From positions 76,708 to 140,707 of the forward strand of contig JBAXQK010000001.1 of the NCBI GenBank assembly GCA_037131775.1: DNA of 64,000 nt, given 5' to 3'. The stretch's first letter is position 1. Each line of letters starts with the position of its first letter. This document shows positions 525-59,013 of this stretch, piece by piece. The position numbers and the translations under genes were made by a program. A model generated the notes under the pieces. The model had not been told where the DNA came from, did not search any database, and saw nothing but the letters and a program-made list of their open reading frames with translations. The stretch comes from Candidatus Uhrbacteria bacterium (GTDB lineage Bacteria; Patescibacteriota; Patescibacteriia; UBA9934; GWF2-40-263).

Positions 525-1985
<1,461 letters not shown>

Positions 1986-2857: not shown

Positions 2858-2945
2858 GGTTGATTCTCCATGGGTCGTTCAGACCCGCATTGAGTGACAC
2901 GAGCAAGGAACAGACGGATGGCGAGGATACAGGAAAAATGGCCGT

Positions 2946-2974
2946 CTGTCAAGATACGGAGGCAGTGCTATAAT
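2946..2974 (+). promoter_or_regulatory. Sigma70-like promoter (CTGTCA-17-TGcTATAAT) giving an essentially leaderless transcript for the helicase-nuclease gene
   Basis: Extended -10 TGnTATAAT at 2966-2974, only 9 nt before the ATG at 2984. A -35-like CTGTCA lies 17 nt upstream. Confidence 0.45.
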
Positions 2975-2983
2975 GCGCCCACT

Positions 2984-5896
2984 ATGTCCGACCTCCTCCA
3001 AAACCTCAACCCGGAACAATCCGCCGCCGTGACGCACCGCGACGGGCCGCTTATGATCGTCGCCGGGGCCGGGACGGGGAAGACGACCGTGATTACGAAG
3101 CGGATCGCGTACCTGATCGAACAGGGACTGGCGAAGCCGGAGAATATCCTCGCGCTCACGTTTACGGACAAGGCAGCGGGCGAGATGGAGGAGCGCGTCG
3201 ATTGTCTTTTGCCGTACGGGTATCTTGAATTATCGATTTCGACGTTCCACGCGTTTTGCGAGAAGCTGCTGCGCGAATACGGCGTTGAGATCGGCCTGTC
3301 GCGCGACTTCCACGTTTCGTCGGAGCTCGACGCGTGGCTGCTTGCGCGTCGAAACCTCGAGCGATTCGAGCTCGATTATTATCGTCCGCTCGGGAACCCG
3401 ACGAAGTACCTGCGCGGCTTGCTTACGCATTTCTCGCGCGCCAAGGACGCAGCGATCGACCCGGCGGGGTATCTGGCGCATGCGAATGCTCGAAACGAAG
3501 CTAGCGGGACTAAAGTCCCTGGGAATCTTGATGAGACGGACGATGAAGCCGTCTCGGACATTAAGAGACTGACCGAGCTCGCCAACGGTTACAACACCTA
3601 TCAGTCGATTCTCCTCGAGAACGACACGCTCGACTTCGGCGACTTGCTCATGTACACGCTGAAGCTCCTCCGCGAGCGTCCGCGAGTCCTCGAGGCGCTG
3701 CGACGGCGGTACACCTACGTCCTCGTCGACGAGTTCCAGGATACGAACCTCACGCAGTACGAGATCGTCAAGCTGATCGCGGCTCCGCGGAACAATATCA
3801 CGATCGTGGGCGACGACGACCAGGCGGTGTACTCGTGGCGCGGGGCGACGATTGAGAATATCCTGACGTTTCAGACGGACTATCCGGACGCGAAGAAGAT
3901 CGTTCTGACGCAGAACTACCGGTCCGTCCAGAAGATCCTCGACCACGCGCACTCGTTCATCCAGGCGAACAATCCGCACCGGCTCGAGTCGATTGGTAAT
4001 CTCGACAAGAAGCTACAGTCCAATCGTACCGACGAGGGAATCGTCGGTCACATCCACGTGCCGACGCTCGATGAGGAGACCGAGGCCGTCGCCCAAAAAA
4101 TACTCGACCTACGTGTCGCGCATCCCGACATGAGCTGGAGCGACGTGGCCATTTTGTCGCGCTCGAACGATGCGGCCGTGCCGTTCCTCTCGACGATGGA
4201 GCGCCACGGGATCCCGTACCAGTTCATGGCCCTTCGCGGCCTGTACGCCAAGCCGATCGTCCTCGACCTCATGGCCTACCTCCGCGCCGTCGCGACTCCT
4301 CACGACAGCCCGTCGTTCTATCGCGTCCTCGCGCACCCGATGCACAACCTCCCGCATCTCGCCATCGCCGAGCTGTCGCAGTTCGCCAACCGAAAAGGGA
4401 AGTCGTTGTTCGACGCGTGCAACATGATTTTGGAGTTGAATACGATAAGTGCTCAAGCCATCGAGACGGTCCAGAACCTCCTTGTTCAGATCGAATCCTT
4501 CCGCCAGTCCGCCGCACACGGAAAGGTCTCAGAGCACTTCGTCAAAGTCGCCCGCGACGCCGGGTTCGTCGCGTTCGCCAACGATCTTCCCGAGCAGGAC
4601 AAGATGGACAACTTCCGCTATCTCCAACAGTTCTACGAGCGCCTCAAGCGGTTCGAGGCCTCGCACGACCATCCGATCCTCCGCAACTTCCTCGACGAGT
4701 TCCAGCAGGAGCTCGACGCGGGCGAGGAGGGATCGCTCACGTTCGATCCGGACGTCGGCCCGGACATGGTTCGCGTCATGACCGTCCACGCCTCGAAGGG
4801 CCTCGAGTTCCGCTTCGTGTTCGTCATCTCGATGATCGATCAACGCTTTCCGTCCGTGTCGCGCGCGGAGGCGATCTCGCTTCCAGACGGACTGACCGGA
4901 CCGTCGAAGTCGACGGACGGCGAAGACGACAAGCTCGCGCATCTCGAGGAAGAGCGCCGGTTGTTTTACGTCGCGATTACGCGCGCGAAGGAACAGCTCT
5001 ACCTCACGTCCGCCGACGACTACGGCGGATCGCGCAAGCGCAAGCTGTCGCGGTTCCTCACCGAGCTCGGGTTCGACAAGCCGGCCGGCCGAGACGCGAC
5101 GAAGGCCGACCCGTTCACCGACGACCCGTCCGTCCCGCCGCCGACCGCCGAAGCCCCAATCATCCACCTCCCAAAACAATTCTCCTTCACCCAACTCTCC
5201 GCCTTCAAAACCTGCCCGCTCCAATATAAATTCGCCCACGTCCTCAAAATCCCCGTCTTCGGAAAAGCCTCGTTCTCGTTCGGAAAGACCATGCACGAGA
5301 CGCTTCATCGTTACTTCGTCGAGTGGATGGACCAAGAATCGCCCGTCCCCCTCGACGATCTCTACCGGCTCTTCGACGAGAACTGGCAGGACGACTGGTA
5401 CGAGGACGATCTCGAACGCGAGAAGTTCCGCACGCAAGGCCGCGATCAGCTCAAAGCATTCTTCGACTTTCTCAAGGACCATCCGCCGGCTCCGGTGTAC
5501 CTCGAGCAAGACTTCACACTCAAGTTCGGCGACACTATCCTCAAGGGCCGCATCGACCGCATCGATACGGTCGAGGGCGGCGTCGAGATCATCGACTACA
5601 AGACGGGAACTCCGAAGGTCGACGGCAAGATCGACGCGTCCGACAAGGAACAGCTGTACCTCTACCAGATGGCCGCCCGCGACATCCTCGGTCTGAACGT
5701 CGTGAAACTCACCTACCACTATCTCCAGGACAACTCGCAGGTTTCCTTCATCGGCGACCCGGACGACCTGCTCAACCTCCAGGAAAAAATCCTCGACCGC
5801 GTGGACGGGATCAAGAAGAGCTCGTTCATCGCGACCCCGGGATTCCACTGCCAGTTCTGCGACTTCAAGGATATTTGCGAATTTAGACAACGTTAG
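2984..5896 (+). CDS. UvrD/PcrA-family SF1 helicase fused to a C-terminal PD-(D/E)xK nuclease with a Cas4/AddB-like Fe-S cysteine cluster (AddA-like helicase-nuclease)
   Basis: Walker A AGAGTGKT; UvrD motifs (TFT, DEFQDTN, QNYRS); C-terminal ...FKTCPLQYKF...IDYKTG...FHCQFCDFKDIC. Start taken at MSDLLQNLNPEQ. Confidence 0.8.
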   Translation: MSDLLQNLNPEQSAAVTHRDGPLMIVAGAGTGKTTVITKRIAYLIEQGLAKPENILALTFTDKAAGEMEERVDCLLPYGYLELSISTFHAFCEKLLREYGVEIGLSRDFHVSSELDAWLLARRNLERFELDYYRPLGNPTKYLRGLLTHFSRAKDAAIDPAGYLAHANARNEASGTKVPGNLDETDDEAVSDIKRLTELANGYNTYQSILLENDTLDFGDLLMYTLKLLRERPRVLEALRRRYTYVLVDEFQDTNLTQYEIVKLIAAPRNNITIVGDDDQAVYSWRGATIENILTFQTDYPDAKKIVLTQNYRSVQKILDHAHSFIQANNPHRLESIGNLDKKLQSNRTDEGIVGHIHVPTLDEETEAVAQKILDLRVAHPDMSWSDVAILSRSNDAAVPFLSTMERHGIPYQFMALRGLYAKPIVLDLMAYLRAVATPHDSPSFYRVLAHPMHNLPHLAIAELSQFANRKGKSLFDACNMILELNTISAQAIETVQNLLVQIESFRQSAAHGKVSEHFVKVARDAGFVAFANDLPEQDKMDNFRYLQQFYERLKRFEASHDHPILRNFLDEFQQELDAGEEGSLTFDPDVGPDMVRVMTVHASKGLEFRFVFVISMIDQRFPSVSRAEAISLPDGLTGPSKSTDGEDDKLAHLEEERRLFYVAITRAKEQLYLTSADDYGGSRKRKLSRFLTELGFDKPAGRDATKADPFTDDPSVPPPTAEAPIIHLPKQFSFTQLSAFKTCPLQYKFAHVLKIPVFGKASFSFGKTMHETLHRYFVEWMDQESPVPLDDLYRLFDENWQDDWYEDDLEREKFRTQGRDQLKAFFDFLKDHPPAPVYLEQDFTLKFGDTILKGRIDRIDTVEGGVEIIDYKTGTPKVDGKIDASDKEQLYLYQMAARDILGLNVVKLTYHYLQDNSQVSFIGDPDDLLNLQEKILDRVDGIKKSSFIATPGFHCQFCDFKDICEFRQR
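3506..3526. repeat. Family-2 palindromic element half/short copy (GGGACTAAAGTCCCTGGGAAT) in-frame inside the helicase gene
   Basis: Identical 21-mer to one arm of the full palindrome at 49642-49690. Encodes SGTKVPGN in the host frame. Confidence 0.6.
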
Positions 5897-5973
5897 GCCG
5901 CAGGCACGAATGCCGAGAGGCCGTAGGGGAACGCGTCCACCTACGGCCTCTCATCCTACGGCCTTCAATCCTT

Positions 5974-6276
5974 ATGGACTCCCTCAAGGGCCTGCTCTCA
6001 AACATGCTCGCGCGGCATCAGATCACCAAGCAGGTGACCACCGCGCGGATTATCGAGGAGGCGAACGCCGCGATCGCGGCGTTGCTTCCGGCTGGGCGAG
6101 AGGGCGACGCGACGGCGGTATCGGTCCGCGAGGGGACCGTCGCCGTGAGTTGTCGCAATGCCGGGGCGGCGGCGTTTCTGCACGATCGCGAGGAACCGAT
6201 TCTCGTCTCGATCAAGAAGGCGCTGCCCGGCGCGCAGGTCGATCGGGTGCGGACCAGGGTGAGTGGTGGGTGGTAA
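5974..6276 (+). CDS. Small DUF721/DciA-like protein (hypothetical)
   Basis: About 100 aa, a conserved-looking pattern of hydrophobic and Gly positions with a cysteine; sits beside a replication/repair gene. Weak assignment. Confidence 0.35.
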   Translation: MDSLKGLLSNMLARHQITKQVTTARIIEEANAAIAALLPAGREGDATAVSVREGTVAVSCRNAGAAAFLHDREEPILVSIKKALPGAQVDRVRTRVSGGW

Positions 6277-6322
6277 GTGGTTAGTGGTATACTACTCACT
6301 ACAAACCACTCACTACTCACCT
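6263..6322. repeat. GTGAGT/ACTCAC leader hairpin preceding the membrane-protein start
   Basis: GGTGAGTGGTGGGTGGTAAGTGGTTAGTGGTA / TACTACTCACTACAAACCACTCACTACTCACC inverted repeat. Ends ...CACCTGTG with GTG as the putative start. Confidence 0.6.
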
Positions 6323-20448: not shown

Positions 20449-20460
20449 GTTGTCGATCTC

Positions 20461-20502
20461 GTTCCCCCTCCTCATAGGGAGGAGGGGTCAGGGGTAGTCG
20501 TC
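20461..20502. repeat. Family-1 palindromic element copy A, intergenic (between gltX stop and peptidase start)
   Basis: GTTCCCCCTCCTCATAGGGAGGAGGGGTCAGGGGTAGTCGTC. The core CCCCTCCTC-ATAGG-GAGGAGGGG is a perfect palindrome. Confidence 0.85.
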
Positions 20503-20509
20503 GCGCTTC

Positions 20510-27880: not shown

Positions 27881-29803
27881 GTGATTGCCGAAGTTTATCC
27901 AATCAAGCGGATGCCGCGCCGGTTCGACGTCTTCGACTATGAGATCCCGACCGGCATGAATCTCGCACGAGGATCCGGCGTCCGGATCCCGTTTCGGTTC
28001 GGAGAGATGCGCGGAATCGTCGCGCGAGTCACGGACGGTGCGGGACGTGGAAAGACGATCAAGCCCGTCTCGGCGATCCTGCCGGACCTTTCGATGACCG
28101 ACGACGAGCTCTCCTGCTTCGAGGACGTCGCGTTCGATACCGCGCAAAGCGTCTCGGCCGTCCTCCACGCGACGATCCCGATTCCGGGGAAACGCGACGT
28201 TTCGTCCGCCCGTCGATCCCTCAGCGTTCCCCCTCCTCATAGGGAGGAGGGGTCAGGGGTGGTCGTCTCGCCCCTCACGATCTCCGCCCGCGAGGCCCCG
28301 CAAATCTCTCAGATTGTCGCGGAACTCTCCGAGCGATCCGAGGCATTCGTCGCCATCCCCGACCTCAAGCGCGCCGCCGTCCTCATCGCGACCTACCGCC
28401 GCGACCACCCGACCGAACCCGTCCTCGTCCTCGCGCCGAACGTTCGCGATGCACGCCTCATCGCGTCCCGACTCTCTTACGTTTCCCCTCCTCATAGGGA
28501 GGAGGGGTCAGGGGTGGTCGTCGTGACCGGCGAGGAGTCTCCGGCCGAGCGTTTTCGCCGCTGGAAGCTCTGGCGCGGCCGAAGGACCGGCCTCCTCGTC
28601 GGCTCCCGCGTCGCGGCTCTCTGGACCCATCCGACGCTCGGCGCGGTATTCCTCGTACGCTCGGGACACCCCAACCATAAGCAGGACGACCGAAACCCAC
28701 GCTTCGACGCGCGATTCGTGGGACAGGTTCTCCATGGGCGACTTTCCGCCAAGCGCTTTCACCTAGACGTCATGCCAAGCACCGAGGACCTCGTTGGATT
28801 CGGCGCGGCAAATCTCCTCGGCCCGACCGCCCGTCCCGAAACGATCATCGCCGACATGACGATCGAGCGCGCCGGTTCCCCGCACCCGTGCCTCGGCAAC
28901 AGCCTTGTCATCGAGATCGCCCAGACACTCGCCGAGAACCGGCGCGTCATCTGCGCGTACAATCTCAAGGGCGTGTCGCGACGATTGCAATGCGCCGACT
29001 GCGGACACCGGTTTCCGTGCGAGAACTGCGGCGGAGTGCTCGCACCGTACGTGACGACGGTCCAATGCCACCGATGCGGTCGGACCGAGCCGCTGCCGGC
29101 CTCTTGTCCCGCATGCCATAAGAACAAGCTCACGCCGAAGGGATTTGGAAACCGCGCGGTCGCCGCGGCATTGCAGTCGGCGTTTCCCGAGGCGACCGTC
29201 GCATGCCTCGATCGCGATACGGACGTGGACGGCGCGAAGGACGCGGACATTCTCGTCGTCACGCGCCATTACGTCGAGAACGTCTTCGACCCCTTTCACC
29301 CACCGGACGTCGGTCTCGTCGCTGAGCTTGATGGGGACCGGTCCTTGTTCGAGCCGTCCTACCGTGCCCTCGAGAAATCCCTCCTTAACGCCGAGGAGTG
29401 GCGCGGAATTGCCCACGCCTGCCGCGCCAAGTTCCTCATCCAGACCGAGATGCCCGATTTGTTCCGCAACGCCCTCTCGCAGCCGGAAAAAGCCCTTCTC
29501 GACGACCTCGCCATCCGCAAGTCCTACGCCCAGCCCCCGTATGTCCGCGCCATGACCGTCGAATTCAAGCCCGACGAGCCAGGCGAACAGGCCCAAGGAA
29601 TCGCCAAGGCCATCGAAGCGATCCGCGCCGTCTCCACGTCGACCGAGATTTCGAAGCTCCCCTCTCCTTCCAAAGGAGAGGGTCAGGGTGAGGTCTACGC
29701 CCGTATCCGCCTCGCCGTCCCCCCGTCCGACGAGCTTGCCGTTCTCCAGGCCTTTTCCCCGTTCGACGACTCGTATATCATTGACACAAGGCCGTTAGAA
29801 TGA
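27881..29803 (+). CDS. priA: Primosomal protein N' (PriA)-like, with Cys4 zinc-binding domain but no recognisable Walker A/B motifs (GTG start)
   Basis: N-terminal 3'-DNA-binding-like domain. PriA-like blocks (VLVLAPNV..., RRWKLWRGRRTGLLVGSRVAAL) and CADCGH...CENCGG...CHRCG...CPAC. The positions where GxGKT and DEEH are expected read IPDLKRAA and RSGH. Confidence 0.65.
   Translation: MIAEVYPIKRMPRRFDVFDYEIPTGMNLARGSGVRIPFRFGEMRGIVARVTDGAGRGKTIKPVSAILPDLSMTDDELSCFEDVAFDTAQSVSAVLHATIPIPGKRDVSSARRSLSVPPPHREEGSGVVVSPLTISAREAPQISQIVAELSERSEAFVAIPDLKRAAVLIATYRRDHPTEPVLVLAPNVRDARLIASRLSYVSPPHREEGSGVVVVTGEESPAERFRRWKLWRGRRTGLLVGSRVAALWTHPTLGAVFLVRSGHPNHKQDDRNPRFDARFVGQVLHGRLSAKRFHLDVMPSTEDLVGFGAANLLGPTARPETIIADMTIERAGSPHPCLGNSLVIEIAQTLAENRRVICAYNLKGVSRRLQCADCGHRFPCENCGGVLAPYVTTVQCHRCGRTEPLPASCPACHKNKLTPKGFGNRAVAAALQSAFPEATVACLDRDTDVDGAKDADILVVTRHYVENVFDPFHPPDVGLVAELDGDRSLFEPSYRALEKSLLNAEEWRGIAHACRAKFLIQTEMPDLFRNALSQPEKALLDDLAIRKSYAQPPYVRAMTVEFKPDEPGEQAQGIAKAIEAIRAVSTSTEISKLPSPSKGEGQGEVYARIRLAVPPSDELAVLQAFSPFDDSYIIDTRPLE
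28226..28267. repeat. Family-1 palindromic element copy B, in-frame in priA-like gene
   Basis: GTTCCCCCTCCTCATAGGGAGGAGGGGTCAGGGGTGGTCGTC encodes VPPPHREEGSGVVV. Confidence 0.9.
28481..28522. repeat. Family-1 palindromic element copy C, in-frame in priA-like gene
   Basis: GTTTCCCCTCCTCATAGGGAGGAGGGGTCAGGGGTGGTCGTC encodes VSPPHREEGSGVVV. Confidence 0.9.
29659..29695. repeat. Diverged family-1-like palindromic element (variant 3) in-frame near priA C-terminus
   Basis: CCCCTCTCCTT-CCA-AAGGAGAGGG-TCAGGGTGAGGTC: same architecture (palindrome plus TCAGGG(G)TG(R)GGTC tail) and same frame, encoding PSPSKGEGQGEV. Confidence 0.6.
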
Positions 29804-34301: not shown

Positions 34302-35347
34302 AGATATTCCTTCAATTTCTCAAGCTGTACTTCGTTCGTAAACTCGTCGGCAGCCCGCCGATAGGCCGCTTCGCCCAGCCGCCGCCGTTCCTCGTCGCTC
34401 ATGGCCAAACGATACACCGCGTCCGCGAGCGCCGCAATGTCCCCGTCCTTGACGAGAAGGCCTGTCATTCCGTTGAGAACAGCCTCGTCGACGCCCCGCA
34501 TGTCCGTCGCAACCGACGGGACGCCATGCAGCGCGGCCTCGAGATACACCATGCCGAATCCTTCGCGGTCGACGGAATCCGCCACGACCGGCTCGACGAA
34601 TATGTCGGCGGCGGCGTAATGGTCGGAGAGCTGATCGTCGGCCACGTCGCGAGCGATCGTCACTCGGTCGTCGAGACCAAGCTCGGCGATGCGTCGCGCG
34701 ATCGTCTCGAGACAAGGGCCGTCGCCGACGATGTCGTATTGAACGGATAGGTCGGGATGGTCGCGCCGAAGCAGCGACATCGCGTCGAGAACGCGAAGGT
34801 GGCCTTTGCGAGGGACGAGCCGAGCAACGGTAAGCAAACGAAAGACGTGCGCGACGACCACCCCTGACCCCTCCTCCCTATGAGGAGGGGGAACATGTTT
34901 GGATATCGTCGGGTATACGACGACCGTCCTCTCAACCCCAAACTCATTCTTCACTTCCCTCTCCAACGCCTTCGAGTTCGCCACGACCACCTCCGCACCG
35001 CGCAGGACCATCCCAGCGACGATTCGCTTTGCCCAGCGCGTCTTAGCGAGCCCAATGTCCATCCCGTGAACGATCACGACGTACGACGTTCCCGTCATCC
35101 ACTTGAACGCAAGCGCCGCCGTCCCGATCGGCAAGACGTGGCTGACGACAATCGTCGTGTCAACACCGAGTGTCGACGCTTGGCGATCGTGAAAGAATTG
35201 TCGAAGCGCCTGCCACCACCGCGTCGACGGATCCAAGACGGCCACTTCCATCGAATCTGAAAAGTACGCCGCGAGATTCCCGAGGTATCTGGCCACTCCG
35301 CCCCGCGACGGCGCGTAATCAGTCGTGTATAGCCGTGTCTTCGGCAT
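34298..35347 (-). CDS. Family 4 (GT-B) glycosyltransferase carrying an in-frame family-1 element
   Basis: N-terminal ...YAPSRGGVARYL... and C-terminal EGFGMVYLEAALHGVPSVATD (E-x7-E-like). Start at MPKTRLYT. Confidence 0.75.
   Translation of the reverse strand: MPKTRLYTTDYAPSRGGVARYLGNLAAYFSDSMEVAVLDPSTRWWQALRQFFHDRQASTLGVDTTIVVSHVLPIGTAALAFKWMTGTSYVVIVHGMDIGLAKTRWAKRIVAGMVLRGAEVVVANSKALEREVKNEFGVERTVVVYPTISKHVPPPHREEGSGVVVAHVFRLLTVARLVPRKGHLRVLDAMSLLRRDHPDLSVQYDIVGDGPCLETIARRIAELGLDDRVTIARDVADDQLSDHYAAADIFVEPVVADSVDREGFGMVYLEAALHGVPSVATDMRGVDEAVLNGMTGLLVKDGDIAALADAVYRLAMSDEERRRLGEAAYRRAADEFTNEVQLEKLKEYL
34853..34894. repeat. Family-1 palindromic element copy D (reverse orientation on + strand, same orientation relative to host gene), in-frame in GT4 gene
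   Basis: Reverse complement equals copy B exactly. Encodes VPPPHREEGSGVVV between the two Rossmann-like halves. Confidence 0.9.
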
Positions 35348-49000: not shown

Positions 49001-50392
49001 ATGAAGCTTCTCCAGCCCATCTCAGGCACCGTCGACCGGCTTGCGCCGGACGGCAGCGGCGTGATCAATCGTCCCGAGGGCAAACCTTTTTTGATTTATA
49101 ACGTGATTCCGGGCGAGGAGGTGACCGCGACGGTCGTGAAGCGCGGGCCGGACGGCGTACGGGCGAAGCTCGACTCGATCGTCGTCGCGTCGCCGGACCG
49201 CGTCGCGCCGCGCTGCCCGTACGCCGGAACGTGCGGGGGGTGCAAGTGGCAACACATGGATTATACACGACAGCGGCAGGAGAAGCTCAATCGGCTGCGG
49301 TCGACCTTCGCGGAGGCGGCGACTGAGTGTCCCGTCGAGTCCGTCGTCGCAAGCCCCGACCAGTTCTACTATCGCAACCGCATGGATTTCACCTTCGGGC
49401 GCGACGGCGAACTTGGCTTGAAGATGCCGGACAAATGGTGGGCCGCGCTCAACCTGGAGACATGCTACCTGCTCTCCCCCGAATCCGTAGAAATCGTCAA
49501 CGCCGTCCGCGAGTGGGCACGATCGACGGGATTGCCCTTCTGGGACGGAAAGACGCACGCGGGATTCTTTCGGTATCTCGTGATCCGCGAAGGAAAGTTT
49601 ACGGGCGAGCGCATGGTCACGCTCGTGACGACCGACCCAACGGGACTAAAGTCCCTGGGAATCGATGGAATTCCCAGGGACTTTAGTCCCGCGGGTTTCG
49701 TCGCCGCGATCGGCGACCGCGCGACCTCGATCATCCACGGCATCAACGACGGAATCACCGACCTCTCGATCTCCGACGTTCTCGTCCCGCTCAAAGGCGA
49801 CCCGTTCATTCACGAGGAGATCAACGGCGTCCGGTTCAAGATCACGCCGAACGCATTCTTCCAGACCAACTCTGCCATGGCCGCGAAACTCCAGGACGAG
49901 GTCGTCCGTCACTGCGAGGCTGCCGTCACGGGCAAGACGAACGCGACCGTCCTCGACCTTTACTGCGGATCCGGATTCTTCTCCCTCGCCCTCGCAAAAC
50001 GGTCGCCAACGATGAACGTCGTTGGAATCGAGGAAAACGCCGAGGCGATCGCCTGCGCCAAAGAGAACGTCGCGACGAACGGCGTCTCGGCCGAATACTT
50101 CGTCTCCAAGGCCGAGGAGTTCGACTGGAAGAGCTACGCCCCCGACGTCGTCATCGTCGACCCGCCGCGCGCCGGAATGCACCCGAAGGTCATCGAGACC
50201 CTTCTTGAGGCCGCGCCCCCGACGATTATCTATATCTCCTGTAAATACGAGCGTTTCCTCATGGAATGGAACGGAACCGCCAACAGCGCCCCGGCGCTTT
50301 CGACCAAATACCGCCTCGCCGACGCGGCCGCCCTCGACCTCTTCCCGCACACCCCGCACATCGAGTTCGTCGCGCGGCTCGAGCTACGTTAG
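49001..50392 (+). CDS. rlmD: 23S rRNA (uracil-5-)-methyltransferase RlmD/RumA-type (TRAM domain + 4Fe-4S + SAM MTase) carrying an in-frame family-2 palindrome
   Basis: TRAM N-domain. Cysteine cluster CPYAGTCGGCKWQ. SAM-binding VLDLYCGSGFFS. Catalytic region ...DPPRAG.... Confidence 0.8.
   Translation: MKLLQPISGTVDRLAPDGSGVINRPEGKPFLIYNVIPGEEVTATVVKRGPDGVRAKLDSIVVASPDRVAPRCPYAGTCGGCKWQHMDYTRQRQEKLNRLRSTFAEAATECPVESVVASPDQFYYRNRMDFTFGRDGELGLKMPDKWWAALNLETCYLLSPESVEIVNAVREWARSTGLPFWDGKTHAGFFRYLVIREGKFTGERMVTLVTTDPTGLKSLGIDGIPRDFSPAGFVAAIGDRATSIIHGINDGITDLSISDVLVPLKGDPFIHEEINGVRFKITPNAFFQTNSAMAAKLQDEVVRHCEAAVTGKTNATVLDLYCGSGFFSLALAKRSPTMNVVGIEENAEAIACAKENVATNGVSAEYFVSKAEEFDWKSYAPDVVIVDPPRAGMHPKVIETLLEAAPPTIIYISCKYERFLMEWNGTANSAPALSTKYRLADAAALDLFPHTPHIEFVARLELR
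49642..49690. repeat. Family-2 palindromic element, full copy (GGGACTAAAGTCCCTGGGAAT-cgatgg-AATTCCCAGGGACTTTAGTCCC), in-frame in rlmD
   Basis: Perfect 21/22-nt inverted repeat with a 6-nt loop. Encodes TGLKSLGIDGIPRDFSPAG in the host frame. Confidence 0.85.
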
Positions 50393-52360: not shown

Positions 52361-52413
52361 AGGATAGTGAGTAGTGAGTGGTGAGTAGTTTGTGGTTAGT
52401 ATATAGTATTCCC
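52361..52413. repeat. GTGAGTAGT-repeat leader element immediately upstream of the thioredoxin-like gene (minus strand)
   Basis: Minus strand reads ...CACAAACTACTCACCACTCACTACTCACTATCCTATG(gca). Same ACTCAC motif and CCTATG start context as the atp hairpins. Confidence 0.55.
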
Positions 52414-53064: not shown

Positions 53065-54169
53065 TCCCGCCGCCGATCATCTCCTCGCCGTCGTAGATCA
53101 CGATCGACTGTCCGGACGTGACGGCGCGGACAGGGTCGTCGAACTCGACGGTGATCTGCTCCGTGTCGACCACCCCTGACCCCTCCTGCCTATCAGGAGG
53201 GGAAACTTGGGTGGGGGGGACTTGGGTGATGGAGACGATCGTGCACGCTTGCAGCGGTTGGCGATAGCGGACGCGGGCGGAGAGCTTTTCTCCGACGACG
53301 GGGCGACGGAACCAGTTCGTAGACGTCGCGACGAGTTTCTTTTCAAACAACGCCGGATGAAAATTGCTCGAGACGATGAGCTGCTTCGTCTCGGGTTTTT
53401 TGTCGACCACGTAATACGGCGTTCCTCCCCCGACGTTCAGGCCGTGGCGCTGACCGATCGTATAGAACGCGACCCCCTCGTGCGTACCCACCACTTCCCC
53501 GCCCGTCGTGACGATCTCGCCCGGATCCTCCGGAATCCGTTCCTTCAAGAACTCACGGATGTCGACTTCCCCAACGAAACAAATCCCCGTCGAATCCTTC
53601 TTCTCCGCCGTCGACAACCCAAGCTCGCGCGCCTTCTCGCGAACCTCAGGCTTCGTCATCGCGCCGACCGGAAACAACAAGCGCGGCAGCACGGCCTTTG
53701 GGATCGCCCAGAGAAAGTACGTCTGGTCCTTGTTATCGTCGGAACCGGCGAGGATCCGGCCGTCGACGATCCGCGCATAATGCCCAGTCGCGACGAACGC
53801 GCAGCCGAGACGGTCCGCCTCTTTGACGAACAGGTCGAACTTTACGTACTTATTGCACAGCACGTCGGGATTCGGCGTCCGTCCCGCCGCGTACTCCTGA
53901 TACAGATTCTCGACGACGAGGTCGCGATACTGCTTCTCGAAGTCGAACGTGACGAACGGAATCCCAAGCTTCGCCGCCACCCGCATCGCGTCACGCCGCT
54001 CGGTGCGCCAGCCGCACTCCTTCGTCTCTCCATCGCACTTGATCTCCGTCCAGTTCTTCATGAACGCCCCGATCACCTCGTACCCCTGCTCCAACAGCAA
54101 CGCCGCGGCCACGGACGAATCCACGCCGCCGGACATGCCGAGAAGAACTTTCTTGGGAGCTTCTTCCAT
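53054..54169 (-). CDS. mnmA: tRNA-specific 2-thiouridylase MnmA, with an in-frame family-1 element near the C-terminus
   Basis: PP-loop VLLGMSGGVDSSVAA. Catalytic cysteines. Start taken at MEEAPKKVLLG. Confidence 0.9.
   Translation of the reverse strand: MEEAPKKVLLGMSGGVDSSVAAALLLEQGYEVIGAFMKNWTEIKCDGETKECGWRTERRDAMRVAAKLGIPFVTFDFEKQYRDLVVENLYQEYAAGRTPNPDVLCNKYVKFDLFVKEADRLGCAFVATGHYARIVDGRILAGSDDNKDQTYFLWAIPKAVLPRLLFPVGAMTKPEVREKARELGLSTAEKKDSTGICFVGEVDIREFLKERIPEDPGEIVTTGGEVVGTHEGVAFYTIGQRHGLNVGGGTPYYVVDKKPETKQLIVSSNFHPALFEKKLVATSTNWFRRPVVGEKLSARVRYRQPLQACTIVSITQVPPTQVSPPDRQEGSGVVDTEQITVEFDDPVRAVTSGQSIVIYDGEEMIGGGIIV
53168..53206. repeat. Family-1 palindromic element copy E (variant 2: CCCCTCCTG-CCTAT-CAGGAGGGG), in-frame in mnmA
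   Basis: GACCACCCCTGACCCCTCCTGCCTATCAGGAGGGGAAAC encodes (minus strand) VSPPDRQEGSGVV. Confidence 0.9.
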
Positions 54170-56778: not shown

Positions 56779-59013
56779 CTAGTCGAACTTGATCGTCTGG
56801 CCCGAGTAGACCGTACCGGTCTTCAGCGGAACCCAGCCGTCGTTGTCGTCGGATGGCGACGGGGCGATCGGCGCGGGTGGTTTCGGGGTTGGGGCGGGCG
56901 TCGTGACGGGAGTCGGAACCGGAGCCGGATTACTACCAACGCTCGGTGTTGGCAGTTGCGGTTTGGGAGCGACGGGTTGTTGTAGGTGTGGGTTTGAGTT
57001 GTTTGTAGTTTGTGGCGCTACGGGCGGCCGAGGCTTCGGATTCTGCAGGAACGCCTGTGGGGAATTCGGGCCGCCGGTGCCCTTGTTAGGGCGCTTGCGT
57101 CGCGTGTCCTTGCCTGGGACGAAGGGGCGCGGTCCTGTCGCGGCCGGGGTTGGCTGCGGTTGTCGCGGAGTCGACGGAGAGCCGTGCGTCGCGGCAACCG
57201 CGATCGGCGCGGCTGACGTGACCGTCGGGGGGCTGTTCAGCGGGGATGAGAGCATTTGGGACATGAAGTCGGTCGCGGGCGCTGGCGTCGAGACGACGGG
57301 CTTCGGCGCGACGACCACCCCTGACCCCTCCTGCCTATCAGGAGGGGAAACGTGCTTGATGACCGGGGCTGCCGGGGGCCTGGCGACTGGGGCCAATGCG
57401 GTGAGCGATACGGACGACACGGGACGGGCCGCCGCGACGGGCGGACGATCGACGGGCGCGCTGTCCAACGAGCGCAATGGCGGCGGAGGCGGGGACGGCG
57501 GGCGCCTCGTGTCCTTGCGATCCTTCCCTTTCGCGCGTTCCTCCTTCACAATCTCGATGCACTCCTCGCAATAGATCGGACGGCTCGTGTCGAGCTGCAC
57601 CGCGAGCGCGATATCCTTGTTGCAGCGCGAACACTTATAGTCGAACCTTGGCTTCTTCGATCCTTTCGCATCTTTCTTCTTTGCTTCCATCTCCGCGACC
57701 ATCTTCCCGATGGACTCGTCGTCGCCCATCCCGGTCCACTTCATGATCTTGTCGGCGATCTCCTCGCGCGGCGTCGTGTACCGCTCGCGGCTCACCTTGA
57801 TCACCTTTTCCTCCGACCCGGTGCGCTTGGCAATCGGCGGAAGCGTCATTGCGGAGAACGGCTGGCTCGTGACGCCGTCGATGAGCAGCTTGAGATAAAT
57901 GTTGTACTTCGGCAGGTTGATAATGTCCTCCGGCAAAAAGCGCGGGGCAAACTCCGTTTCCATGTACGCGGCGTCCGGCGAACCGACGCGGAAGGTGACG
58001 ATCGTTCCGACGTTTCCAAACACCGCCTCGCGTACCTCGTCGGAGAGCTGGGCGATGTACTGGTGGGCCATCGTCAGGCAGAGGCGGTACTTGCGCGCCT
58101 CGGACAGGATGCCGGCGAACGATTCCGTCGCGAAGTTCTGGAACTCGTCCACGTACATGTAAAAGTCCTTGCGCTCGTGCTCCGGCTGGTCCACGCGTTC
58201 CATGGCCGACAGCTGCAGCTTCGTGATCAGAAGCCCTCCGAGAAGGCGCATGTTGTCCTCGCCGATGCGGCCCTTCGACAGGTTGATGATCAGGATCTTC
58301 TGCTCGTCCATCAGCTGGCGGATGTTGATGGTCGACTTTACCTGGGCGACGATGTTGCGAATGACCGAGGCGGACAAAAACTGACCGATCTTGTTCTGGA
58401 TCGGGGCCACGGCCTCCTGCGCGTACTTCTCCTGGTAGCTGGCGAATTCCACCAGCCAGAACTGCTTCACCACCGGATCCTGCACGTTCGCGACGATCTT
58501 GCGTCGGAAGTCCGCGTCGGACAGCATGCGATTGATCCCAAGCAGCGTCGACCCCGGGTTGTCGAGCAGCGCGAGGATCGCGTTGTTCAAAATGTACTCC
58601 ATGCGCGCGCTCCAGAGGTTCTCCCAGAGCTTCTTGAACACGCCCATCATTCCGGACGCGACCAGGTGCTTCGTCTTCTCGCTGACCGTCTCCAAGATGT
58701 TGAATCCGATCGGAAAATCAAGGTCGGCCGGATTGAAGTAGATGACGTCGTTTATGCGCCAGCTCGGGATATAGTCGATAAGCCGCTCGGCCGTGTCGCC
58801 GTGCGGGTCGATGTACGCGCATCCGTGACCGGCATAGATGTCGGTAAGGATGAGATTTTCGAGCAGAACCGTCTTGCCCATGCCCGTCTTTCCGATCACG
58901 TACACGTGGCGGCGGCGGTCATCGGTCTTAACGCCAAATTTCCGCATCTGATTGCGGAAATTGGTGCGCGCGAAATAGTTTACCTCGTTCTCGTGATCGT
59001 GGGCGTAGCTCAT
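56779..59013 (-). CDS. Type IV secretion coupling-protein-like P-loop ATPase (TraD/TraG/VirD4 family), soluble, with C-terminal zinc ribbon and Pro-rich tail
   Basis: Walker A GKTGMGKT; DPHGD; Walker B YVDEFQNF; ...ARKYRLCLTMAHQYIAQL... like the T4CP C-terminal motif; CSRCN...CEEC ribbon. The tail contains family-1 copy F. Confidence 0.5.
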   Translation of the reverse strand: MSYAHDHENEVNYFARTNFRNQMRKFGVKTDDRRRHVYVIGKTGMGKTVLLENLILTDIYAGHGCAYIDPHGDTAERLIDYIPSWRINDVIYFNPADLDFPIGFNILETVSEKTKHLVASGMMGVFKKLWENLWSARMEYILNNAILALLDNPGSTLLGINRMLSDADFRRKIVANVQDPVVKQFWLVEFASYQEKYAQEAVAPIQNKIGQFLSASVIRNIVAQVKSTINIRQLMDEQKILIINLSKGRIGEDNMRLLGGLLITKLQLSAMERVDQPEHERKDFYMYVDEFQNFATESFAGILSEARKYRLCLTMAHQYIAQLSDEVREAVFGNVGTIVTFRVGSPDAAYMETEFAPRFLPEDIINLPKYNIYLKLLIDGVTSQPFSAMTLPPIAKRTGSEEKVIKVSRERYTTPREEIADKIMKWTGMGDDESIGKMVAEMEAKKKDAKGSKKPRFDYKCSRCNKDIALAVQLDTSRPIYCEECIEIVKEERAKGKDRKDTRRPPSPPPPPLRSLDSAPVDRPPVAAARPVSSVSLTALAPVARPPAAPVIKHVSPPDRQEGSGVVVAPKPVVSTPAPATDFMSQMLSSPLNSPPTVTSAAPIAVAATHGSPSTPRQPQPTPAATGPRPFVPGKDTRRKRPNKGTGGPNSPQAFLQNPKPRPPVAPQTTNNSNPHLQQPVAPKPQLPTPSVGSNPAPVPTPVTTPAPTPKPPAPIAPSPSDDNDGWVPLKTGTVYSGQTIKFD
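57313..57351. repeat. Family-1 palindromic element copy F (variant 2), in-frame in the T4CP-like gene tail
   Basis: GACCACCCCTGACCCCTCCTGCCTATCAGGAGGGGAAAC encodes (minus strand) VSPPDRQEGSGVVV. Confidence 0.9.

Follow-up and report, generated by a model that had tools for sequence, protein, structure and literature searches.

A 64,000-nucleotide stretch of a Candidatus Uhrbacteria genome (contig JBAXQK010000001.1, positions 76,708 to 140,707; hereafter the window) carries three copies of one short hairpin unit inside two protein-coding genes. Two copies lie in inverted orientation within rlmD, and the third interrupts the gene for a UvrD/PcrA-type helicase fused to a nuclease. We regard the unit as probably belonging to a non-autonomous family of hairpin repeats of Candidatus Uhrbacteria and related Patescibacteria, comparable to repetitive extragenic palindromes (REPs) and bacterial interspersed mosaic elements (BIMEs) and to the Rickettsia palindromic elements (RPEs) RPE-4 and RPE-6. 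The feature is real, and a preliminary description of it, made from the letters of the window, was essentially right. A REP-like family of hairpin repeats is new for Patescibacteria, a group with minute genomes that is commonly portrayed as containing little mobile DNA. No report of REP-like repeats in Patescibacteria or Uhrbacteria was found in the literature that we searched.

Three copies of one unit in the window

The exact 21-mer GGGACTAAAGTCCCTGGGAAT occurs at three sites in the window, 3506-3526 (+), 49642-49662 (+) and 49670-49690 (-), and has no match in 100 dinucleotide-preserving shuffles, even with up to three mismatches permitted. The 14-mer core alone, with up to two mismatches, gives five matches where 2.95 are expected, which is not significant. 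The signal resides in the exact 21-mer and its flanks, not in the 14-mer core. The two rlmD copies make up an element of 49 nt (49642-49690), a perfect palindrome of two 21-nt arms around the unpaired centre CGATGGA. The preliminary description had reported a perfect inverted repeat here, and it was correct about the arms but gave the spacer as 6 nt, whereas it is 7 nt. Folded as single-stranded DNA (ssDNA), the palindrome reaches -29.9 kcal/mol (z = -9.4). The arm that had been noticed inside the UvrD-like helicase gene at 3506-3526 is an exact match, and both reading frames are as first given, PTGLKSLGIDGIPRDFSPAG in the RlmD open reading frame (ORF) and SGTKVPGN in the helicase ORF.

The left unit of the rlmD element begins with a 5' tag, CCCAAC, at 49636-49641 (+), where the family consensus is cnGAC or gcGAAC. 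It continues with the left hairpin A(+), GGGAC-TAAA-GTCCC, at 49642-49655 (+), and ends with the tail TGGGAAT at 49656-49662 (+), in which T..GAA is near-invariant across units. Beyond the unpaired central spacer (49663-49669) follow the tail of the right unit (49670-49676, minus strand; ATTCCCA on the plus strand) and the right hairpin A(-) (49677-49690, minus strand; GGGACTTTAGTCCC on the plus strand). The helicase copy, a single A(+) unit on the plus strand, aligns to the family unit with its hairpin at 3506-3519 and its tail at 3520-3526. On the tag side of the 21-mer, the likeness of the two genes continues in part, with 8 of 11 bases identical between helicase positions 3495-3505 and the right rlmD arm at 49691-49701 (ACGAAGCTAGC and ACGAAACCCGC). 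Part of this rlmD segment is native coding sequence, and the likeness may reflect co-copied flanking DNA or chance.

A compensated hairpin with constant flanks

Scans with the exact 21-mer recovered 11 loci from GTDB representative genomes and five from JGI/ENA metagenomes, and ortholog contigs added more (loci are designated by L numbers below). Across these sequences the basic unit is a hairpin module of ~ 28-30 nt rather than the 49-nt palindrome. A tag (cnGAC or gcGAAC) comes first, followed by a 5-bp stem rich in G+C, a loop that is invariably TAAA, the returning strand of the stem, and the tail TGGGAATTC, of the form T-n-n-GAA-(T)(T)(C). In an alignment of 42 units (A2), all have C at position -1 and at least 90% have A at position -2. 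A hidden Markov model of the unit (searched with nhmmer) identified 45 solid units in 279 kb of related DNA from metagenome-assembled genomes (MAGs) and metagenomes, and in the window it found only the three known units.

The stem exists in four variants, GGGAC, GCCAC, GCCGC and GTCAC, all perfectly Watson-Crick compensated, and every 5-bp stem with a TAAA loop in the collected sequences is a family member with the flanks. A pattern that places no demand on pairing (AC-N5-TAAA-N5-TNNGAA) produced 36 matches, of which 35 are perfectly paired and one is decayed by two C-to-T changes (L009:5685-5715). As a control, a related degenerate pattern gave 15 matches in IMG/VR, none of them paired; these are chance matches in coding sequence. 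In the 42-unit alignment all cells are standard pairs, and three of the five stem pairs have changed on both sides. The observed covariation score was reached by 0 of 500 shuffles, although the GCCAC variant probably represents one or a few events counted repeatedly, and six alignment rows came from a pattern that demanded pairing. The covariation indicates that the hairpin is under selection.

Units occur singly (the helicase copy, L012, L014 and L038) or in several combinations. Head-to-head dimers are found in the window and in L001, L002, L005, L008, L009, L011, L016, L018 and L037. In those of rlmD, L009, L002, L018 and L037, the two tails abut or overlap at GAATTC or have a variable spacer between them, and those of L001, L005, L008, L011 and L016 are heterodimers, in which the stems differ. 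Tail-to-tail pairs occur in L006, L010, L013, L017 and L019, and direct tandems in L015 (28-nt period) and L019 (three units, 36-nt period). Dimers are 46-65 nt long, and their spacers differ in sequence and length, with 12-33 nt separating the two hairpins. Given these arrangements, the 49-nt rlmD palindrome is a head-to-head homodimer and the helicase copy is a monomer. The tandem array of L019 (5823-5930), between ftsI and murF, consists of three identical 36-nt units (GACGGGACTAAAGTCCCTGGGAAAACGTCTCGGCAA) with an inverted GCCAC unit before them. The tandem unit looks like a clustered regularly interspaced short palindromic repeat (CRISPR), yet spacers are lacking.

Insertions relative to close orthologs

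The rlmD gene (49001-50392, +) encodes an rlmD/rumA-type 23S rRNA (uracil-C5)-methyltransferase of 463 aa with the Pfam domain PF05958 (tRNA_U5-meth_tr). The protein is 100% identical to P0001, RlmD of Candidatus Uhrbacteria. Orthologs at 93, 87 and 81% protein identity have 12 residues fewer and read TATNDAFRPEG in place of the window's TTDPTGLKSLGIDGIPRDFSPAG. We compared the gene codon by codon with that of L002, a syntenic relative whose RlmD is 94.7% identical at the protein level and whose DNA is ~ 91% identical to the window over a long alignment. The inserted block spans 49631-49681 (+); its 51 nt compare with 15 nt in L002, which makes the net gain 36 nt (12 codons). The helicase gene (2894-5896, +) encodes UvrD-helicase, UvrD_C and PDDEXK_1 domains by Pfam, the last corresponding to the fused PD-(D/E)XK nuclease. 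Its true start is probably a few codons downstream of 2894, and the public gene call is of 992 aa. Helicase orthologs at 93, 91, 87 and 81% protein identity have eight residues fewer, and the block AACGAAGCTAGC-GGGACTAAAGTCCC-TGGGAAT at 3494-3526 (+) is 33 nt long against 9 nt in the orthologs L020 and L021, which makes the net gain 24 nt. The view of both copies as small insertions in coding sequence is thus borne out, the 12 residues of RlmD and the eight of the helicase being absent from close orthologs.

Ortholog lengths vary at both sites, and that in the helicase falls in an indel-rich region. The ortholog comparisons indicate that the two copies are lineage-specific and situated in variable loops. 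In an AlphaFold2 (AF2) model of the window RlmD, with a mean predicted local distance difference test score (pLDDT) of 93.4, the sole low-confidence blocks are residues 211-230, i.e., the insert, and the window protein retains every column that does not vary among the aligned orthologs. The empty allele of L002 has GAC..TTTCGTCCC opposite the window's GGGACTTTAGTCCC, with TTTCGTCCC aligned to TTTAGTCCC, the right end of the rlmD palindrome; this L002 sequence could be what is left of an old unit, or a half-site that was already there. Two further candidates were discarded. The hairpin just 3' of the helicase copy (GAGACGG...CCGTCTC) is native and present in element-free orthologs, and a supposed decayed unit in P0006 ('PTGLLASG') has DNA without convincing similarity.

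Copies within and between genes of related genomes

As the preliminary description had anticipated, copies occur beyond the window, in other Uhrbacteria, related MAGs and metagenomes, and many of them sit in frame within genes that are unrelated. Roughly half of the loci fall between genes, often directly 3' of a stop codon, and the remainder are in frame within genes. Intergenic copies follow a transketolase half and a DUF4349 gene in L011 and a TraG/VirD4-like gene in L002, and lie between ftsI and murF in L019. An example of a copy private to a relative is L002:16127-16176. No empty site could be defined for the intergenic dimer of L002, where the region is not alignable with the window.

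In-frame copies occur in at least 10 different genes. Hosts confirmed by Pfam include an MBL/ComEC-like protein, a Wzy_C ligase, a ComF-like phosphoribosyltransferase and an amidohydrolase (Amidohydro_3). In a DUF3048 protein the unit lies between the two domains, and in valyl-tRNA synthetase (ValRS) it lies in the linker preceding the anticodon-binding domain. The unit is open in four of its six frames (TGLKSLGI, GTKVPGN, EFPGTLVPS and IPRDFSP), the other two carrying TAA or TAG, and every genic copy is read in an open frame. Both orientations relative to transcription are found, and the unit sequence is common to genomes of 46-66% G+C. Density is modest, at three units in the 64-kb window, 0-4 per related locus of 8-20 kb, and ~ 1 locus per 30 kb; the suggestion that the genome is 'colonised' by such elements is therefore overstated for the hairpin family.

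Phage, plasmid and IMG/VR viral collections contained no copy of the element. Rfam returned no family, only sub-threshold matches to generic miRNA hairpins, and a 30-aa element-peptide query matched only unrelated repetitive proteins in the representative library. The peptides encoded by the element, joined into one query, gave no candidates.

Some loci have features of their own. In L006 (1004-1037), the ORF of an ECF sigma factor (1019-1657, minus strand) ends within a unit, which supplies both the stop codon and the final residues (..NSQGL). In L011 (4098-5153), the DUF4349 gene separates the two parts of a split transketolase and has units on both sides (4098/4133 and 5098/5132), and it could be a unit-flanked cassette. 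In L009 (6406-7068), a gene for a fused Vsr and GIY-YIG endonuclease, adjoining a SLOG-domain gene, lies ~ 700 nt from the decayed unit; no link between this gene and the repeats was established. The records of L005-L008, L010, L011 and L013 are titled 'uncultured Gammaproteobacteria bacterium', a label that is doubtful. In the two element-bearing MAGs so labelled, ValRS is only 37% identical to E. coli ValS, and the transketolase is split in two genes. Given the doubtful label, crossing of phyla by the element is not shown.

One RlmD loop occupied in four lineages

The RlmD loop that holds an A+/A- dimer in the window is occupied in three other lineages, by an A+/A- dimer with a spacer longer by 12 nt in L037, an A+/B- dimer in L001, and an A- singlet in L038. 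It is empty in the closest relative of the window, L002, and in that of L001, L039, which has 88% protein identity to L001. The units in this loop are identical between lineages, synonymous positions included, in a host gene that has diverged. Relative to the window, nucleotide identity of the gene is 85-90% in L037 (66% at third codon positions), 72% in L001 (53%) and 67% in L038 (36%). Possibly the loop is a recurrent landing site, through targeting or because tolerant places are few, or an old insertion there was kept by selection or conversion, or both.

The rlmD allele of L037 (3465-4736), with the longer-spacer dimer, is called at 423 aa and loses similarity to orthologs in its last third. 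A frameshift, an error of assembly or pseudogene status could account for this loss, which is apparently unrelated to the element. A likeness of the unit to 23S rRNA around U1939, the RlmD substrate, was considered and did not exceed that of shuffled controls.

Proposed spread and competing explanations

How might such units move? By analogy with HUH/Y1 enzymes acting on REPs and on the ends of IS200/IS605 elements, units would be copied to new sites via a single-stranded hairpin, and a trans-acting protein would recognise the hairpin structure plus the sequence of loop, tag and tail. We hold with moderate confidence that such mobilisation in trans through ssDNA is the most likely route of spread. 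The mechanism is inferred from the anatomy of the unit, because no transposase was found. At REPs and IS200/IS605 ends, HUH/Y1 enzymes recognise just such a short hairpin, with compensated changes in the stem, a constant loop and flanks that are single-stranded. Genic copies would be the survivors of selection, persisting because they are in frame within tolerant loops. Insertions would be tolerated only where a stop-free frame is used (four are available), the length is divisible by three, and the site is a surface loop or interdomain linker; the net gains of 36 and 24 nt are multiples of three. The added residues (GLKSLGI.., ..IPRDFSP, GTKVPGN and EFPGTLVPS) would then be passengers rather than adaptations.

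Several observations weigh against a mobile repeat family. A regular-expression motif screen of 277 kb revealed no transposase or HUH protein, tblastn over the same 277 kb with YafM and IS608 TnpA queries found none either, and nor did Pfam analysis of 20 unit-flanking and 10 host ORFs. A weak tblastn match in L017 was considered as a transposase and led nowhere. Copy density is low, with the exact 21-mer at 1-5 loci per GTDB representative genome. No insertion event was directly observed. In all three comparisons of filled and empty alleles, the element stands in for 9-22 native nt rather than being cleanly inserted between them, and no target-site duplication is visible. Finally, the occupancy of one rlmD loop in four lineages by identical units, in genes that are only 67-90% identical, could reflect old inheritance under selection and not recent mobility.

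This last consideration leads to the main rival, which we consider unlikely: the unit may be a functional cis-element of the host, bound or processed in RNA or DNA according to its sequence and structure. It might stabilise or terminate mRNA, be cut by an RNase, or be the site of a nucleoid, replication or DNA-uptake protein, retained by selection even in coding sequence. The identity of units at all positions despite the divergence of the host genes is the best argument for it, and the compensated stem changes beside an invariant loop, tag and tail, the several intergenic copies directly after stop codons (L011 and L002), and the persistence of one sequence across genomes of 46-66% G+C are all in its favour. 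However, the element is present in one and absent from another of sister lineages whose proteins are 93-95% identical, and nothing suggests that the gene requires it; the host genes are unrelated and carry units in both orientations relative to transcription. One copy has decayed (L009:5685-5715), density is far below the level of uptake sequences, and a perfect 21-bp duplex in mRNA resembles a burden more than a designed signal. It is similarly improbable that the unit is recognised by an enzyme, conserved across Uhrbacteria and related Patescibacteria, with affinity for single-stranded nucleic acid, which would either place units at favoured sites, such as the rlmD loop that is filled in four lineages, or hold old copies identical by conversion. 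If so, this would be a REP system independent of REP-associated tyrosine transposases (RAYTs) that persists inside coding sequence in minimal-genome bacteria.

Other explanations fare considerably worse. The palindromes could have been made locally, without movement, by template switching or quasi-palindrome correction at a loop with a pre-existing half-site. The correspondence between the right end of the rlmD palindrome and the empty ortholog, the coincidence of a conserved Pro codon, CCC, with the hairpin end, and the replacement of native bases rather than addition to them are as this would predict. Yet one 21-25-mer, unchanged and always accompanied by its tag, loop and tail, is present in unrelated genes and intergenic DNA of many genomes, and singlets without a partner exist. 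As local template switching cannot yield the same sequence at independent loci, the dispersed identical copies largely refute this explanation, and we consider it very improbable. We give equally little credence to stray repeats of an RNA-guided system, either solitary CRISPR repeats or units of arrays like those of tandem interspaced guide RNA (TIGR) systems. The 28-nt unit has the layout of type I CRISPR repeats, in which a 5' part precedes a 5-bp stem-loop and an 8-9-nt 3' handle, L019 has its three identical 36-nt tandem units, and TIGR-Tas systems, with 36-nt units, are common in candidate phyla radiation (CPR) bacteria (PMC12045711). Against this, no repeats separated by unique spacers were found at the exact-21-mer loci of GTDB representatives and JGI metagenomes, the L019 units are identical without variable spacers, no cas or Tas/Nop gene was seen adjoining any unit, and the dimers are inverted, unlike arrays. 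An assembly or chimera artefact has a negligible probability. All sequences are MAG or metagenome contigs, in which misassembly can create palindromes, but the insert-bearing RlmD protein is identical in four independent sources, related alleles with the insert were obtained in different studies and with different assemblers, and the reading frame is kept open by copies in at least 10 genes.

Other repeats in the window and its relatives

The preliminary description treated the hairpin unit as independent of another element of the same window, here family 1 (CCCCTCCTC-ATAGG-GAGGAGGGG...), and the two are indeed distinct. Family 1 has a 9-bp stem, CCCCTCCTC/GAGGAGGGG, a 5-nt loop and the flank TCAGGGGTGGTCG. 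Its six copies in the window (20460-20506, 28225-28271, 28480-28526, 34850-34897, 53162-53209 and 57305-57354) all fall in long open frames with high G+C at third codon positions (GC3), in one frame relative to the element, and are translated as (V/S)PPPHREEGSGVV or SPPDRQEGSGVV. L002 has an extra family 1 copy at the 3' end of rlmD (L002:11343-11391), which the window lacks.

A third type of repeat, comprising intergenic inverted repeats rich in GTGA/TCAC (TAGTGAGTAGTAGGTAGTGAGTAG...), occurs in the window at 518-606, 1988-2053, 6257-6321 and 52365-52405, and is present or absent between the window and a ~ 90%-identical relative. Most indels of at least 12 nt between the window and its close relatives (~ 90% DNA identity) are small palindromes. 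Cases of further kinds are at window positions 5911-5966, L021:9943-9981, L002:16746-16781 and L020:8486-8573. Among them, a palindrome of 36 nt, equal to a whole number of codons, lies within the TraG/VirD4-like gene of L002, and the element in L020 is of the GTCATTGCGAG type.

Implications

The interest of the hairpin family rests on its host group, its compensated hairpin, and the conserved occupancy of the RlmD loop across diverged lineages. The family adds peptides to housekeeping enzymes, among them RlmD, a repair helicase, ValRS and a ComEC-like protein. Its units have consequences for strain typing in MAGs, for the alignment of orthologs and for gene calling, one ORF having its stop codon supplied by a unit. 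With compensated stems and an invariant loop and flanks, the unit offers a precise bait for a hairpin-recognising protein, and it bears on how REP classes that lack a transposase spread and persist.

Comparison with known repeats

Rickettsia palindromic elements were the comparison originally drawn, and it holds in part. Like RPEs, the units lie in frame in functional genes at tolerated surface positions, as insertions absent from orthologs, occur in intergenic DNA too, and belong to a host-dependent organism with a reduced genome. Classical RPE-1 to RPE-3 are 100-150 bp long, whereas the units described here measure 28-30 nt (dimers 46-65 nt) and come from another phylum. Length sets them apart from classical RPEs, and they are closer to REPs and BIMEs and to RPE-4 and RPE-6.

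The ends of IS200/IS605 elements provide the mechanistic model for recognition of a hairpin as ssDNA (background in PMC6006769 and PMC8266576). These ends, and ORF-less derivatives (palindrome-associated transposable elements, PATEs), resemble the hairpin units in their small subterminal hairpins, short conserved single-stranded flanks and lack of target-site duplication. The differences are that no TnpA or TnpB was found, that the units of a dimer are inverted rather than being left and right ends on one strand, and that no conserved target tetranucleotide is definable. Miniature transposable elements that carry inverted repeats (MITEs) do not fit, with no direct repeats flanking any inspected dimer or singlet and no parent insertion sequence seen. 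Nor do DNA uptake sequences (DUS/USS), for which ~ 1 copy per kb of a 9-12-nt motif contrasts with ~ 1 locus per 30 kb. Short hairpin-forming repeats inside protein-coding genes also include the palindromic coding repeats of Methanocaldococcus jannaschii and the GC-cluster 'byp' inserts of yeast mitochondria. The ribosome skips mitochondrial byps, whereas genic copies of the hairpin family are all in an open frame and simply translatable.

The closest parallels are with REPs. GTAG REPs flank a gene for a RAYT (Y1 transposase, PF01797) and usually exceed 100 copies per genome, mostly extragenic. Tagged REPs, which form the GTAG and CGTC superfamilies, consist of a tag, a stem-loop and a 3-nt tail, form head-to-head and tail-to-tail homo- and heterodimers, and lie in part within genes, those for DNA repair in particular (Di Nocera, De Gregorio & Rocco 2013, PMC3733652). 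CGTC REPs carry an unpaired terminal CGTC (or TGTC/CCTC) motif and mostly form head-to-head dimers. They have no associated transposase, their families have an 8-9 bp stem starting with A/T pairs, a 4-5-nt loop and a 3-nt tail that is mostly CCA, and RPE-4 and RPE-6 have been equated with them (PMC3733652). The hairpin family shares with tagged REPs and BIMEs, including Pseudomonas REPINs, an unpaired tag, a 3-nt tail, and the occurrence of singlets, head-to-head and tail-to-tail dimers and clusters. Tagged REPs lie mostly just downstream of genes, and here too many copies do so, with others inside genes, repair genes included. A 28-30-nt unit with a 5-bp stem and a 4-nt loop falls in the 20-40-nt range of REP stem-loops. 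The tail TGG reads CCA on the other strand, and the 4-nt loop, the predominance of head-to-head dimers, the intragenic units and the failure to find a transposase are further likenesses to CGTC REPs.

Unlike the CGTC stem of 8-9 bp that starts with A/T, the stem here is 5 bp and G+C-rich. GTAG is present in 0 of the 42 aligned units, and the tag reads GTC or GTT on the other strand and shares its first C with the stem. The minus-strand unit ends in ...GTCCC-GTC (just over half) or -GTT (about a third), so that CGTC can be read only by counting the last stem C. Tail-to-tail dimers are not rare, copy number is low, one unit sequence is found across genomes that differ widely in G+C and gene sequence, and the hosts are Patescibacteria. 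Because the stem definition does not apply and GTAG is lacking, the hairpin family is not a member of any described family. The family is new, and the kind of element, a REP-like hairpin repeat that is found in frame within genes as well, is already known.

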